The notes beneath the pieces are model-generated. The model saw nothing but the letters and a program-made list of their open reading frames with translations, was not told the DNA's origin and did no database searches. Positions 9,113 to 16,880 of a stretch of 31,156 nt of DNA are shown here, one piece after another; position 1 is the first letter of the stretch; every line of letters starts with the position of its first letter. Made by a program: the position numbers and the translations under genes. Source of the stretch: a virus (Duplodnaviria > Heunggongvirae > Uroviricota > Caudoviricetes); IMG/VR virus record IMGVR_UViG_2778261417_000015, positions 1 to 31,156 of that record; one strand, given 5' to 3'.

Positions 9113-9655
9113 ATGCAATCACTTACGTATCAACAGAGTACCGGAATACACAGCAGCGTGATGATAAATCGCGCTCAACCGGAACCGGACAATAACCATG
9201 AGTTGATCCGCGCGGCGGTTCGCGCCTGGTCAGCTGCTATCGACAATCAGGACGTGGTATGCGCGCTGATTATCAACGAGTACCGGGAGCAGGGCGGCAC
9301 AGCGATCAACTTTCCGGAAGATGTGAGCCGGGCCAGGCAGAAGTTATTTCGTTTTCTCGATAACCGGTTCGACTCCGATCAGTACCGCGAGAACGTTCGC
9401 GAGCTGACGCCAGCGATTATGGCTGTCCTGCCGCTTGAATACCGTACGCGGCTGCTTCCACAGAACGACACGATGTCTTTGATTGCTTCTGCAATGAAAG
9501 AGTGTGCTGAGGCTAAGCAGGCGGTACTCCTTGGCGCGCCAGAGCATCAGAAATTGAAGGAGGTAAGCGAAGGTATAGCGTCGCTGTTCCGACTCATGCC
9601 TGAACAGGTAGGCCCGCTGATGACGATGGTCACTTCGATGCTGGGAGTTATGTGA
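9113..9655 (+). CDS. YdaT-like protein in the cII position (180 aa)
   Basis: Intact ORF directly after the nut-like site. The N-terminal segment resembles recalled YdaT-family proteins found after cro-like genes. Functional assignment is tentative. Confidence 0.45.
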   Translation: MQSLTYQQSTGIHSSVMINRAQPEPDNNHELIRAAVRAWSAAIDNQDVVCALIINEYREQGGTAINFPEDVSRARQKLFRFLDNRFDSDQYRENVRELTPAIMAVLPLEYRTRLLPQNDTMSLIASAMKECAEAKQAVLLGAPEHQKLKEVSEGIASLFRLMPEQVGPLMTMVTSMLGVM

Positions 9656-9745
9656 TGGGAAGTTTCAAAAATGGCGAAAGCCAGTCTGCGCGAACAGAAC
9701 TGGCCTTCAGATGCAAATCGTGTGCACTCATTGCAGGAGGAATAA

Positions 9746-9891
9746 TGGCAAAAAATCCACGCTATTACCATACCGCTGTACATAAAAACATAACCCGCGA
9801 CCGCTTCATCCGCTCGGTTAACCCGATTGTGGCAGAGAAGATGCGCGCCATCCTGGAAGAACTGAAACGTAAGGAGAGTGGCCGTGGGTAA
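9746..9891 (+). CDS. Small basic hypothetical protein (48 aa)
   Basis: Strong AGGAGG RBS 5 nt before the ATG at 9746. The longer track ORF starting at 9652 lacks an RBS. Confidence 0.4.
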
Positions 9892-10762
9892 CGTATCCAA
9901 TTTAGCCGAAGCCAGAGAGGCCAGAAGGCTCCAGAAACCGCGCACGAATGACGGTAAGGGGTTTGCCTTGCTGCACCGTAAAATTATGGATGTGCCGTTC
10001 TACAAGGACGCTGAGGCGGCTCATTTATGGGTTCACATGCTCCTGCGTGCTAATCACGAACAGACACTGGTATCTACTGATGTTGGCGATGTGATCTGCG
10101 AGCGCGGAGAGTTCATCACCGGGCGAAACACACTGGCAATGGAAACGGGTTTGACCGCTGATCGCGTTAAATCCCTTCTCCGTAAATTCCAGAATCTGGG
10201 CATGATCACCACCAAATCGAACAACCGTTTTACTGTTCTAAAAGTGGTCAAATATGACGAATATCAGTCAAATTTTTGTCCAGCAGATGTCCAGCCAGCG
10301 TCCAGCCCAAACATAGTCGTACCAATGCCTGCGGAGGTGGAGTGTCCAGCCGATGTCCAGCCAGTGTCCACAGATAACAATATATTAAATAACTTACTAC
10401 CTAACGGTAGTAAGTATGTCGCAAATGACCAGAAACCCGCTGAAGAGAAAAAGTCTCGTTTGTCATGCGATGAAGTATGGCAATGCCTGAAAGACGAACT
10501 GCCTGAAGCACGGGGATGGAGATGCCTCACTGATGAGCGACGCAATCTGATCCGCACATTCTGGGGTAAGGCTAATAAGATTGCCCGCAACCTGGACGGC
10601 AAGCCGATGGATATGGACGGTTTCAGAAGCTATCTGCGTTACATCGCTCAGAACTGCCGCTGGATGCTTGAAGACCGACCAGACCAGAAGTCTGGGAAGA
10701 CCTGGCGCCGTATGAAATTCGATAAGTTCCTGACCGAAAAGCTCTACATCGAAGTGCGCTAG
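9878..10762 (+). CDS. Replication initiator (lambda O-like) with internal origin, 294 aa
   Basis: Winged-helix-like N-terminal domain, iterons embedded in mid-gene, immediately upstream of the DnaB-type helicase. Confidence 0.6.
   Translation: MAVGNVSNLAEAREARRLQKPRTNDGKGFALLHRKIMDVPFYKDAEAAHLWVHMLLRANHEQTLVSTDVGDVICERGEFITGRNTLAMETGLTADRVKSLLRKFQNLGMITTKSNNRFTVLKVVKYDEYQSNFCPADVQPASSPNIVVPMPAEVECPADVQPVSTDNNILNNLLPNGSKYVANDQKPAEEKKSRLSCDEVWQCLKDELPEARGWRCLTDERRNLIRTFWGKANKIARNLDGKPMDMDGFRSYLRYIAQNCRWMLEDRPDQKSGKTWRRMKFDKFLTEKLYIEVR
10277..10373. repeat. Origin iterons, followed by an AT-rich stretch
   Basis: Six copies of a TGTCCAGCC-type unit in two clusters (10277-10308 and 10342-10373), followed by AT-rich ATAACAATATATTAAATAA. 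Encoded as a repeated PADVQP peptide. Confidence 0.6.
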
Positions 10763-10772
10763 GGGGATCGTG

Positions 10773-12206
10773 ATGACCGCTGATTTCATGGCTGTACCAC
10801 AAAACCTCGAAGCAGAGCAGAGCGTTATCGGTGGCCTGCTGCTGGATGATGACAACAGCGAGCGAGTCCAGAAGGTTCTGGCGATGCTCAAGCCTGAATC
10901 GTTCTACAGCCGACCTCACCAGCTGATCTTTGCCGAGATGCGCCAGATGTTCCGCGACAACAAGCCAGTCGATGGTCTGACATTGTTCGACGCGCTCGAA
11001 GGCAAAGGGCTCGCGGAGCAGGTAGGTGGCTTTGCTTACCTGGCGGAGATCGCCAAGAACACTCCCAGCGCTGCAAACATCGTGGCATACGCTGCGTCAG
11101 TCCGGGAAGCCGCAATGGAGCGCTACGGTATCAGCCGCCTGACCGAAGCTACTGAGCTGCTGTATTCCCGCAATGGCATGAGCGCCACGCAGAAGTACGA
11201 GGCCATTCAGGGTATTTTCACCCAGCTCGCAGACCATTCAAAAACCGGTAGTCGCCGTGGGTTGCGGTCGTTCGGCGAGGTTATGGATGACTGGGTAGCA
11301 GATCTGGAGAAACGCTTTGACCCTTCAGGCGAACAGCGCGGCATGAGCACCGGCATCCCGTCACTCGACCGGCTGCTGGCGCCGAAAGGTCTGGTTAAAG
11401 GCTCTCTGTTCGTGATTGGCGCAAGGCCAAAGATGGGCAAGACAACCCTGTACGGTCAGATGGCGATCAACTGCGCGGTTCGTGAGAAAAAGCCAGCGCT
11501 GATGTTCAGCCTCGAAATGCCGGGCGACCAGATCCTCGAAAAACTGGTTGGTCAGAAGTCTGGAGTTAACCCGAGCATTTTTTACATGCCAGCCACGGAT
11601 GACGCCGATGACCAGTACCAGGGCGATTACGACGGCGACTTTAAGAAGGCGATCGCCACCGCCGGGCGATTGAGTGAAATCGACATGCTGTACATCGACG
11701 ATACTCCTGGCCTGTCACTGGCGCACATCGTTAGCGAAAGCCGCCGAATCAAGCGCGAGAAGGGCTGCGTAGGAATGATTCTGGTTGACTACCTGACTCT
11801 AATGACCGCCGAAAAAGCCGACCGTAATGACCTGGCCTACGGGATGATCACCAAAGGTCTGAAGAATCTCGCCAAAGAGCTTGGCTGCGTCGTCGTGCTG
11901 CTGACCCAGCTCAACCGCGAACTGGAGAAGCGAGTGAATAAACGCCCGTTGCCGAGCGATTCCCGCGACACAGGGCAGATTGAGCAGGACTGCGACTACT
12001 GGGTTGGTATCCACCGGGAAGGTGCTTTCGATGACAGCGTGCCGCCGGAAGAAACCGAGTTAATACTGCGACTCAACCGCCACGGCAGTACCGGAACGGT
12101 TTATTGCAATCAGAACAACGGGGCAATTTACGACACAGACCAGCAGGCCGCCGCCGCAGAACGCCGCGGGCGTGAGCAGCAGCCGAAAAAGAAAGGGGGG
12201 TTCTGA
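10773..12206 (+). CDS. Replicative DNA helicase, DnaB family (about 477 aa)
   Basis: DnaB N-terminal domain (LEAEQSVIGGLLLD) and RecA-like ATPase core with Walker A (GARPKMGKTT). ATG at 10773 follows an AGGGGG RBS. Confidence 0.85.
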   Translation: MTADFMAVPQNLEAEQSVIGGLLLDDDNSERVQKVLAMLKPESFYSRPHQLIFAEMRQMFRDNKPVDGLTLFDALEGKGLAEQVGGFAYLAEIAKNTPSAANIVAYAASVREAAMERYGISRLTEATELLYSRNGMSATQKYEAIQGIFTQLADHSKTGSRRGLRSFGEVMDDWVADLEKRFDPSGEQRGMSTGIPSLDRLLAPKGLVKGSLFVIGARPKMGKTTLYGQMAINCAVREKKPALMFSLEMPGDQILEKLVGQKSGVNPSIFYMPATDDADDQYQGDYDGDFKKAIATAGRLSEIDMLYIDDTPGLSLAHIVSESRRIKREKGCVGMILVDYLTLMTAEKADRNDLAYGMITKGLKNLAKELGCVVVLLTQLNRELEKRVNKRPLPSDSRDTGQIEQDCDYWVGIHREGAFDDSVPPEETELILRLNRHGSTGTVYCNQNNGAIYDTDQQAAAAERRGREQQPKKKGGF

Positions 12207-12550
12207 TGACCATAACAATTCGTGGGCAGATTCTTGCAGCCCTGCGTAATAACCCGGGCCTGAATAGTGCTTTCATTGCCAGGATGATCGGCATGACCAC
12301 CAAAAAGATTTCCGGCCCGTTAAGTACGTTGTTTGCAGACGGCCTGATCGAGTTCGAAGGCAAGCACGGACAGCGGCTTTATCGGCTGACCGATTACGGC
12401 ATGAAATACGCACCAGAAACAATCCCGGCTATGCCGAAGGGAAATTCGAAGCTGGTGCAGCGTACAGAGGCAAACGTGATCTGCCAGGAGTGCCGGAAAA
12501 GTCCGGCTATGAAGCGAGTATTGATGGTTTGGGGGAGGGTAGGGGTATGA
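12206..12550 (+). CDS. ren: Ren-like protein (114 aa)
   Basis: The C-terminus (CQECRKSPAMKRVLMVWG) and central segment resemble recalled lambda Ren. Located directly after the helicase gene with a TGATGA overlap. Confidence 0.5.
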   Translation: MTITIRGQILAALRNNPGLNSAFIARMIGMTTKKISGPLSTLFADGLIEFEGKHGQRLYRLTDYGMKYAPETIPAMPKGNSKLVQRTEANVICQECRKSPAMKRVLMVWGRVGV

Positions 12551-15964: not shown

Positions 15965-16101
15965 AAAAGGAAGCCATTGCAGCACTCAAAACTCGCTGGC
16001 AGCGCCAACGCCTGTACCGCTTCCCCGGCTCAGTCCTGACCTATTACCGAATCATCCATAACGCAGCCCGTCTAATTCAGAAAGCAGGAGCCACGCAATG
16101 A
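15961..16101 (+). CDS. Small hypothetical protein (46 aa), translationally coupled
   Basis: Hand-translated ORF (MKKEAIAALKTRWQRQRLYRFPGSVLTYYRIIHNAARLIQKAGATQ) with ATGA overlaps at both ends, to the ninG stop and the Q-like start. Confidence 0.4.
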   Translation: MKKEAIAALKTRWQRQRLYRFPGSVLTYYRIIHNAARLIQKAGATQ

Positions 16102-16787
16102 ATACGCAATATCTTGAGTTTGTTCGACAACAGCTCATCGTGGCAACCGCTGACCTGAGCGGAGCGACGAAAGGGCAACTCATAGCTTTCGCTGAGAACG
16201 CGCAATTCACCGCGACGGCGCGCTGCCGGGGCCGGAAAAAAGTATTCGACAAGGATAAGCAGCGCATGGTGAACCCGGACGGCCCGCCGATGAGCGGCAG
16301 CCAGTCGCGCGCCAAAGGCTCATCAATCGCTCTGGTAAGCCCGGTAGAGTTCAGCACCGCATCCTGGCGACGCGCTGTTTTGTCACTGGAAGAACATCAG
16401 AAGGCCTGGCTTCTGTGGAACTACAGCGAGAACATCCGCTTTGAGTATCAGGTGGCGATCACTCAGTGGGCGTGGGCAGAGTTTCGTGAACAGCTCGGCG
16501 TGAAGAGGGTGGCGGGCAAGACGATGGAGCGCCTGAAGAAACTGATATGGCTGGCGGCGCAGGACACAAAAGAAGAGCTGGCAGGGCGTGAGACGTACGA
16601 ATACCAGGTGCTGGCGTCGCTGGTTGGCGTAACACCAAAGAACTGGTCAGAGACCTTTACGGACCACTGGATGGCGATGAGACGCATCTTCCTGAGCCTA
16701 GATAGTGGCGCTTTATTGCAGGTAACACGATCACGTTCACAACAAAAGGCGACAAACTCTCATGAAAGTCTTGCAAAACTGGATTGA
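16098..16787 (+). CDS. Late-gene antiterminator Q-like protein (229 aa)
   Basis: Assigned by position: last gene of the nin region, followed by a candidate promoter, strong terminators and the lysis cassette. Sequence resembles the recalled phage antitermination Q family, unverified. Confidence 0.55.
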   Translation: MNTQYLEFVRQQLIVATADLSGATKGQLIAFAENAQFTATARCRGRKKVFDKDKQRMVNPDGPPMSGSQSRAKGSSIALVSPVEFSTASWRRAVLSLEEHQKAWLLWNYSENIRFEYQVAITQWAWAEFREQLGVKRVAGKTMERLKKLIWLAAQDTKEELAGRETYEYQVLASLVGVTPKNWSETFTDHWMAMRRIFLSLDSGALLQVTRSRSQQKATNSHESLAKLD

Positions 16788-16798: not shown

Positions 16799-16851
16799 TT
16801 CATGTAAATCTGATATCGTCGCCATAGCTTCGGTAGTCGACAAACATTAAG

Positions 16852-16880
16852 AGCCTCGCCATCGTGCGGGGCTTTTTTAT
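16852..16880 (+). terminator. Rho-independent terminator (tR'-like)
   Basis: GCCTCGC-CATCGT-GCGGGGC (7-bp stem with one G-U pair) followed by TTTTTTATTT. Confidence 0.6.

Follow-up and report, generated by a model that had tools for sequence, protein, structure and literature searches.

Candidate origin within the initiator gene

The window, as we call the whole analysed stretch of 31,156 nucleotides (nt), comes from a virus of the class Caudoviricetes (IMG/VR record IMGVR_UViG_2778261417_000015) and carries an O-like replication initiator gene. In the middle of this gene lie six short direct repeats, followed by an A+T-rich tract and a perfect palindrome. We consider the segment 10277-10415, which comprises these elements, to be very probably the initiator-dependent theta origin of a lambdoid (lambda-like) prophage or phage, situated inside its own initiator gene. 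The elements are arranged as follows.

9878-10762, plus strand: O-like initiator gene of the HK022/HK620/Sf6/L gp18 family (open reading frame, ORF; phrog_345; homology)
10277-10309, plus strand: iteron cluster 1, three units of 11 base pairs (bp), with cores nearly invariant across 73 unique relatives
10310-10342, plus strand: inter-cluster spacer, 33 bp, constant in length and hypervariable in sequence
10343-10375, plus strand: iteron cluster 2, three units, the truncated last one merging into the A+T-rich tract
10371-10391, plus strand: A+T-rich tract, 21 bp, G+C 0.14 (86% A+T), from base composition
10392-10415, no strand assigned: perfect palindrome ACTTACTACC-taac-GGTAGTAAGT, 10-bp stem and 4-nt loop, from an inverted-repeat search

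The six repeat units (10277-10375, plus strand), with the core GTCCAGC and in a 3 + 3 arrangement, were read directly from the sequence:

Unit 1, start 10277: TGTCCAGCAGA
Unit 2, start 10288: TGTCCAGCCAG
Unit 3, start 10299: CGTCCAGCCCA
Unit 4, start 10343: TGTCCAGCCGA
Unit 5, start 10354: TGTCCAGCCAG
Unit 6, start 10365: TGTCCACAGAT, truncated to GTCCAC

The period within each cluster is exactly 11 bp. The second cluster is offset by 66 bp from the first and matches it at 93% identity over 28 bp. The initial annotation had described six units in two clusters of three; the 3 + 3 layout holds, whereas the sixth unit is only a half-unit, as in the relatives. The pentamer GTCCA occurs six times in the 97 bp of the array, against 0.065 copies expected from its frequency in the window (21 copies per 31 kb). 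Five near-matches to TGTCCAGCC (at most one mismatch) fall within 100 bp at the array, compared with at most two in 300 first-order Markov versions of the window (0/300 exceeded two).

We observed no reverse-complement copy of the core inside the array, no internal symmetry of the 11-bp direct-repeat units, and no second repeat array or A+T-rich candidate origin elsewhere in the window. There are no DnaA boxes (TTWTNCACA, at most one mismatch) in 10240-10420, and Rfam and tRNA scans gave no match within the origin. As a separate observation, GTGTCCACA was considered as a DnaA box and rejected, the resemblance being only partial and missing from the repeat classes C to E described below.

The array corresponds to residues 134-166 of the ORF, that is, to the middle of the gene, as annotated initially, and encodes CPADVQPASSP ... 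CPADVQPVSTD. As 11 is not a multiple of three, the three units of each cluster fall in three different reading frames, and hence the peptide is repeated only between the clusters. Thus, of the repeated PADVQP linker proposed earlier, the copy of CPADVQP encoded by each cluster stands, whereas within a cluster there is no peptide repeat. The A+T-rich segment expected after the repeats is present, and the G+C content of 40-bp windows around it drops to 0.25.

Fixed geometry in five repeat classes

More than 1,600 related proteins were found (1,652 homologues). We compared 18 diverse family loci using the conserved KYD codon as the reference point, with core offsets measured in 17 of the 18. In these 17 loci, representing five repeat classes, the cores lie at +28, +39, +50, +94, +105 and +116 from the KYD codon; the comparison with the iterons of related phages proposed in the initial annotation thus gives offsets identical to those of HK620 and Sf6. 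The classes are:

Class A, GTCCAGC: the window, Chronis, and Erwinia, Citrobacter and Enterobacter prophages
Class B, TACCAGC: HK620
Class C, GTCCAAC: Sf6, SE1 and L
Class D, TGCCAAC
Class E, GCCAAC-like

The encoded peptides differ by repeat class (PADVQP, PADYQQ, PTVVQR, PTDCHQ), whereas the DNA geometry is identical. The sixth unit is truncated in every family locus where it was read. In all 18 loci an A+T tract of 12-24 bp (G+C 0.05-0.23) starts at most 5 bp past the array, and next comes a palindrome whose stem has 9-10 bp and whose 4-nt loop is TAAC, TGAC or TAAA.

The second cluster is offset by exactly 66 bp in 180 of the 186 unique origins. Three of the six exceptions (L108, L284, L326) have a precise 66-bp deletion that leaves one cluster, two (L237, L194) have a precise 66-bp duplication and hence three clusters, and the last one (L309) looks degenerate. 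The 66-bp module, consisting of three repeats and the spacer, thus varies in copy number by precise deletion or duplication, which suggests unequal recombination. One-cluster origins, such as that at 3397-3424 of L108 (Salmonella, protein P0008), encode 277-amino-acid (aa) initiators and were found on at least 20 Salmonella contigs and also in Klebsiella, while three-cluster origins were found in class B and class C phages. Judging by the one-cluster sequences, three units beside the A+T tract may suffice.

Sf6-like or window-like O genes were also seen in two assemblies labelled as non-enterobacterial, a Chryseobacterium sp. 18061 contig (L097) and a 386-bp contig of Xanthomonas pisi (L102); both are probable assembly contamination.

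Selection on the DNA in close relatives

We compared 73 unique sequences with 91.6-99.9% nt identity, counting a polymorphism only if it was present in at least two sequences. The numbers of polymorphic sites were:

Repeat cores, all sites: 1/42
Repeat cores, third-codon sites: 0/14
A+T tract plus palindrome (10374-10415): 1/42
Inter-core positions plus spacer: 29/55
Rest of the gene, all sites: 125/746
Rest of the gene, third-codon sites: 101/249

The third-codon sites of the cores are less variable than those of the rest of the gene (Fisher p = 0.0012), while the inter-core and spacer sites, put at five times the gene average in variability, are more variable than the rest of the gene (p = 7e-9). 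In the spacer alone (10310-10342), 17 of the 33 sites are polymorphic, compared with 17% in the rest of the gene. This pattern of substitutions indicates that purifying selection on the array is exerted at the level of the DNA rather than of the peptide. The coding sequence can presumably tolerate a DNA-level array because residues 126-193 form a disordered linker.

If the repeat were a feature of the protein only, it would be a duplicated flexible linker peptide, CPADVQP, with no DNA function. Disordered linkers often expand by duplication, and the peptide is indeed repeated here, the region is predicted to be disordered, and 66-bp deletions and duplications occur. However, the 11-bp unit does not keep step with the codons, the synonymous sites of the cores are invariant (0/14 versus 41% elsewhere) while the inter-core amino acids vary freely, and the peptides of different classes differ at an identical DNA geometry. 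We therefore regard the purely protein-level explanation as extremely improbable.

The A+T-rich tract and the palindrome

By its composition and position, the A+T-rich tract at 10371-10391 would be the DNA-unwinding element of the origin. The palindrome immediately following it was absent from the initial annotation. Folded as a DNA hairpin, it has a free energy of -8.6 kcal/mol (z = -4.3 relative to shuffles). It is located at a fixed offset in 14 of the 18 family loci, and its arms vary between lineages, with pairing kept by compensatory changes. In 12 distinct family sequences, changes on both sides are observed at 8 of the 10 pairs, and 97.5% of cells pair, compared with only 30-48% when the partners are slid, although these pair counts are biased upward, as the palindrome was found in each sequence by a best-stem search. 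Even given this bias, chance comes nowhere near explaining perfect stems of 9-10 bp at a constant offset. The comparison of family members thus identifies the palindrome as a conserved element of the putative origin.

On the minus strand (10415-10385), the palindrome followed by the T-rich tract scores as intrinsic-terminator-like. This was the only signal above chance in the promoter and terminator scan around the origin; in total, six intrinsic-terminator-like sites were found in the scanned region versus 4.6 expected from shuffles.

Hence, the palindrome could, together with the T-rich tract, be a leftward intrinsic terminator, or else an mRNA hairpin, rather than a part of the origin. The minus-strand stem is followed by TATTTAATAT, as in a terminator, and compensatory changes keep the pairing, as they would for an RNA stem. 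On the other hand, just four of the ten stem pairs are G-C, the number of such sites in the region hardly differs from the chance value given above, the replication module shows no sign of a leftward transcription unit, and the lambda origin has a similar dyad in the same place. A terminator or an mRNA hairpin is accordingly an unlikely, but not negligible, explanation of the palindrome, and we continue to treat it as an origin element.

Co-segregation of the repeat class with the N-terminal domain

The repeat class goes with the N-terminal domain, the predicted DNA-binding part of the initiator. The identity of N-terminal domains is at least 59% within a repeat class (median 83%) and 42-60% between classes (median 49%). 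In contrast, the identity of C-terminal domains is independent of the repeat class: the C-terminal domains of HK620 (class B) and Sf6 (class C) are 98% identical. We also considered 240 loci retrieved purely by the class B or class C repeat pattern. All 176 of these that have a class B or class C N-terminal domain have the cognate one. The other 64 comprise 13 loci with distantly related N-terminal domains only and 51 without a recognisable N-terminal domain; nine of the latter were examined, and included other initiator families and intergenic arrays.

Recombinants are common; their junction falls in the A+T tract, so that the palindrome stays with the C-terminal domain. From these comparisons, the A+T-rich tract appears to be, besides its candidate role in unwinding, the recombination junction between a module of the N-terminal domain and iterons and a module of the palindrome and C-terminal domain. 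Moreover, there are natural chimeras, L099 (1423-3065) and L100 (1486-3131), in which a family N-terminal domain, six 11-bp repeats, the A+T tract and the palindrome are joined to a C-terminus 62% identical to residues 162-299 of lambda O (E-value 3e-61). The next gene in both is lambda P (PF06992, E-value 5e-65), replacing the DnaB-type helicase. The C-terminal domain is thus interchangeable with that of lambda O, and in nature the unit of N-terminal domain and repeats and its lambda counterpart can therefore replace each other.

The repeats might instead be bound by another protein, for example by DnaA or IHF of the host, or by the Ren/MarR-like winged-helix protein that the downstream gene 12206-12550 encodes. 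The latter product does have weak winged-helix matches. At the same time, 10240-10420 is free of DnaA boxes, the repeat sequence tracks the class of the initiator N-terminal domain even where the hosts are the same, a pattern that recognition by a host factor would leave unexplained, and L099 and L100 retain the array though the rest of the module is of the lambda type. Recognition by a protein other than the initiator hence seems very unlikely.

Similar repeats are also found outside the family. Distantly related initiators contain in-gene 11-bp GTCCAAC or GTCCAGC units: L113, with Phage_rep_org_N and Rep_Org_C domains, has three in-gene 11-bp GTCCAAC units; L141 encodes an initiator with a DnaB_2 C-terminal domain; a further case is L228. 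These in-gene units link the layout to replisome-organiser phages such as SPP1. Intergenic 11-bp arrays are present in the unrelated contigs L124, L179 and L244. Overall, the contigs found by the repeat pattern alone have 3-7 units of 11 bp with the cores GTCCAAC, GTCCAGC or TACCAGC. Judging from this distribution, the core and the 11-bp period seem to be older and wider-spread than the enterobacterial family.

Comparison with known origins

The origin type itself has already been proposed for HK620, Sf6 and L; what is new here is the repeat sequence GTCCAGC. Gene 18 of phage L contains six imprecise 11-bp repeats considered to be the likely origin (PMC8022706). The GenBank records of HK620 (AF335538) and Sf6 (AF547987) have a putative rep_origin at equivalent codons, and the note in the Sf6 record, also given as putative, likens the repeat region to the phage lambda origin. 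The HK620, Sf6 and L origins are themselves predictions from sequence. A literature search by the repeat sequence returned primer noise only.

With HK620, Sf6, L and HK022 the window shares a full-length homologous initiator (41-51% aa identity), the 3 + 3 units with the 11-bp period, 66-bp cluster offset and truncated sixth unit, and the subsequent A+T tract, palindrome with a 9-10-bp stem and 4-nt loop, and DnaB-type helicase gene; the core offsets from the KYD codon are, as mentioned earlier, the same as in HK620 and Sf6. The differences are in the core (GTCCAGC in the window, TACCAGC in HK620, GTCCAAC in Sf6 and L), in the sequence of the palindrome arms, and in the N-terminal domain, which is only 46-60% identical to those of the HK620 and Sf6/L classes and hence points to a distinct origin specificity. 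Thus, by every feature testable here, the window origin groups with the HK620/Sf6/L-type family, as a distinct repeat and N-terminal domain class.

The lambda origin, located centrally in gene O, has been established by experiment and comprises four 18-19-bp iterons and an A+T tract of 38 bp (PMC3349717, PMC7466680); the N-terminal 162 aa of lambda O bind it (PMC2629481). Similarly to lambda, the window origin lies within the linker-coding middle of the initiator gene and consists of a repeat array, an A+T-rich tract and a dyad with a 4-nt centre; the lambda dyad is 12+4+12 and is positioned just right of the A+T tract. In lambda the N-terminal domain binds the origin and the C-terminal domain contacts the helicase-delivery partner, and the domains of the window protein would have the same roles. 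Furthermore, relatives of the window protein carry the lambda O C-terminal domain and lambda P. However, no homology between the window initiator and lambda O was detected (BLASTP best E-value 12). Each of the four lambda units is an imperfect inverted repeat bound by a dimer, whereas the window has six 11-bp direct repeats; the partner in the window is a phage DnaB-type helicase, whereas lambda uses the P loader plus host DnaB. Hence, we infer by analogy that the window origin works like ori-lambda and yet, given the missing homology, the 11-bp direct repeats and a helicase partner other than a P loader, is outside the lambda O family. The initial annotation had the arrangement mirroring the lambda origin; this holds for the layout (repeats, A+T tract and dyad in the linker-coding part) and does not extend to the protein, the unit type or the helicase partner. 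The Stx phage study (PMC7466680) concerns the lambda-type O of P27 and 933W, not the HK022/HK620/Sf6/L family.

In SPP1, the direct repeats of oriL to which gp38 binds are located within gene 38, beside an A+T-rich unwinding element (PMC6316719). The window resembles this and other replisome-organiser systems in having direct repeats and a candidate A+T-rich unwinding element inside the initiator gene, and in the matches of its protein to PHROG families named 'DnaD-like helicase loader'. It differs in that its protein reaches no Pfam model of the replisome-organiser families (including Phage_rep_org_N), that SPP1 has a separate loader, gp39, and that the number and arrangement of the repeats are not the same.

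A further possibility is that the repeats are initiator-binding sites with a mainly regulatory function, such as autoregulation of the operon, copy control by array pairing or interference with superinfecting phages that share the specificity, while strand opening occurs elsewhere. Plasmid iteron arrays serve both replication and regulation. Iterons of ori-lambda, once cloned, act in trans as inhibitors of lambda-type replication (PMC3349717), and the same-core 11-bp arrays in L124, L179 and L244 are intergenic. Nevertheless, in all 18 diverse loci the array is followed, within 5 bp, by the A+T tract (5-23% G+C) and then by the dyad, which is the layout of the proven origins in lambda and SPP1, and no other array or A+T-rich candidate origin was seen in the window. 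A mainly regulatory role is thus quite improbable.

The initiator protein and its helicase partner

Two coding regions within the initiator gene and the gene following it complete the module:

9998-10252, plus strand: N-terminal domain, predicted winged helix, approximately aa 41-125 (AlphaFold model, fold search)
10460-10759, plus strand: C-terminal helical domain, approximately aa 195-294 (AlphaFold model; predicted local distance difference test, pLDDT, 70-86)
10770-12206, plus strand: phage DnaB-family replicative helicase, the partner of the initiator (TIGR03600 phage_DnaB, E-value 1.9e-164, above the cut-off; Pfam DnaB and DnaB_C)

The identification of the gene as an O-like initiator is confirmed by the match to phrog_345 'replication initiation O-like' (E-value 9e-64, residues 5-294) and by tblastn similarity to HK620 O (51% aa identity over 100% of the query, E-value 7e-91) and Sf6 gp43 (41%, full-length, E-value 2e-59). 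Full-length similarity is also observed to HK022 O and VT2-Sakai O (approximately 51% aa) and to gp18 of SE1/ST64T (approximately 48%). The true start of the gene is probably GTG at 9884, which sits 7 nt past AAGGAG at 9871-9876 and is the start in the annotation of Enterobacter phage CobraSix, where the product is called just 'hypothetical protein'. No Pfam or NCBIfam family was found for the initiator at an E-value of 0.01 besides one sub-threshold MksE match, and Pfam PF09681 and PF07261 (replisome organiser / DnaD-like) gave no match. The PHROG 'DnaD-like helicase loader' matches cover aa 27-172 (phrog_2514, E-value 6e-23; phrog_186, E-value 1e-14). A sequence search of PDB with the family profile found nothing.

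In the AlphaFold model, the N-terminal domain combines a helix-turn-helix (83-90, 94-106) with a beta-hairpin wing that spans 110-123 (pLDDT 57-81), followed by the disordered linker (residues 126-193, pLDDT about 30). The leading fold matches are all winged-helix DNA binders (CodY, ArsR/SmtB, MarR, CRP), and the matches include 4pt7 ('Structure of initiator') and 4pql ('N-Terminal domain of DNA binding protein'). They are consistent with a DNA-binding N-terminal domain and are not decisive. The N-terminal domain would therefore be a candidate for the part that binds the repeats, and the C-terminal domain for the one that recruits the helicase. Assignment of the N-terminal domain to a specific structural family was also attempted and dropped, since the fold search gave generic winged-helix matches only.

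The stop codon of the initiator, TAG at 10760-10762, is unique to the window: of the 73 close relatives compared above, 71 read GAG and one reads GAA at this position. The relatives without TAG continue for seven codons (EGDRDDR) that overlap the helicase start; this tail, missing from the window protein, is kept across the family members paired with a DnaB-type helicase. The TAG may reflect either a genuine nonsense mutation or an error of sequencing.

Neighbouring genes

Upstream of the initiator are a CI-like repressor, a Cro-like gene, a CII/YdaT-like gene and a small orf48/hkaW-like ORF, and downstream of the helicase is the Ren/MarR-like gene; Pfam and NCBIfam scans found no lambda P gene in the window. 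By gene content, this is the order of a lambdoid early-right operon. We ascribe the origin to a prophage or phage of the Enterobacter/Klebsiella group; the closest isolated phages are CobraSix (97.8% nt identity) and Klebsiella phage Chronis (92.8%).

Several annotations in the window deserve comment. The orf48/hkaW homologue (9652-9891, plus strand), a small ORF overlapping the start of the initiator, is labelled 'tail protein' by PHROG 1913 and several RefSeq records; because of its fixed place between the cII-like gene and O, this label is almost certainly an annotation error passed on from record to record. The gene in the cII position (9113-9655, plus strand) matches both Pfam YdaT_toxin (E-value 8e-28) and PHROG 163 'CII-like transcriptional activator' (E-value 4e-59), that is, one family has conflicting names in two libraries. 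Finally, at 16803-16875 (plus strand), 3' of a 229-aa ORF (16098-16787), there is an Rfam match to isrJ, an Hfq-binding small RNA (69.9 bits with a gathering score of 37, E-value 4e-11).

Proposed mechanism and implications

The homology, the rep_origin annotations, the selection on DNA, the covariation with the N-terminal domain and the chimeras all agree, at the level of sequence, with the initial reading of the repeats as origin iterons. The origin could then function as follows. The six GTCCAGC units, spaced by 11 bp, would be bound by the N-terminal winged-helix domain. Each unit would probably hold a single domain, and adjacent domains would lie on almost the same side of the DNA helix. 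The resulting protein-DNA complex would destabilise the adjacent 21-bp A+T-rich tract, and the C-terminal domain would bring in the DnaB-type helicase encoded by the next gene. The palindrome at the far edge of the A+T tract would be a part of the origin and may extrude as a hairpin or cruciform marking the entry of the helicase or primase. The origin DNA would be free to act as a binding array because the aa encoded by it, 134-180, belong to the disordered linker.

Several observations weigh against this interpretation. As the repeats adjoin the DNA coding for the N-terminal domain, their co-segregation may partly reflect linkage; this caveat is mitigated by the palindrome, which is only 20 bp off and does reassort, and by the conserved KYD(D/E)(Y/F)Q-coding stretch that separates the N-terminal domain from the array; no crossover inside this stretch was seen. 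One-cluster variants persist in many Salmonella contigs, and hence six units are perhaps not all needed. The AlphaFold model was built from a shallow alignment of 12 sequences and has a mean pLDDT of 60, and the PDB fold matches of the N-terminal domain are weak (E-values 0.009-0.07, none at or below 0.001). The pair counts for the palindrome carry the upward bias described above. Finally, our literature search found no experiments (origin cloning, footprint, two-dimensional gel) on the HK022-type family.

More speculatively, the array may be one allele of a conserved fixed-geometry origin 'grammar', which would combine out-of-frame 11-bp repeats with a (G/T)NCCA(A/G)C core, the last of them truncated, with an A+T tract and a hairpin kept by compensating changes, and would be common to enterobacterial lambdoid phages and some Gram-positive replisome-organiser phages. 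We consider this generalisation possible, though rather doubtful. If it is true, core changes of 1-2 bp together with changes in the recognition helix would create mutually orthogonal replicons, and the covarying hairpin would be an entry or priming signal for a phage DnaB without a separate loader.

The current understanding of lambdoid replication is unchanged by these results. They offer a concrete hypothesis for the conserved hairpin beside the unwinding element, locate the probable origin in prophages of Enterobacter, Klebsiella and Salmonella that form a very common group, and add a further candidate origin-specificity class, GTCCAGC, to those of HK620, Sf6 and L. The comparative set, with its five classes of the same geometry, one- and three-cluster variants, and chimeras with the lambda O C-terminal domain, is a ready system for studying how a winged-helix initiator shifts its DNA specificity.

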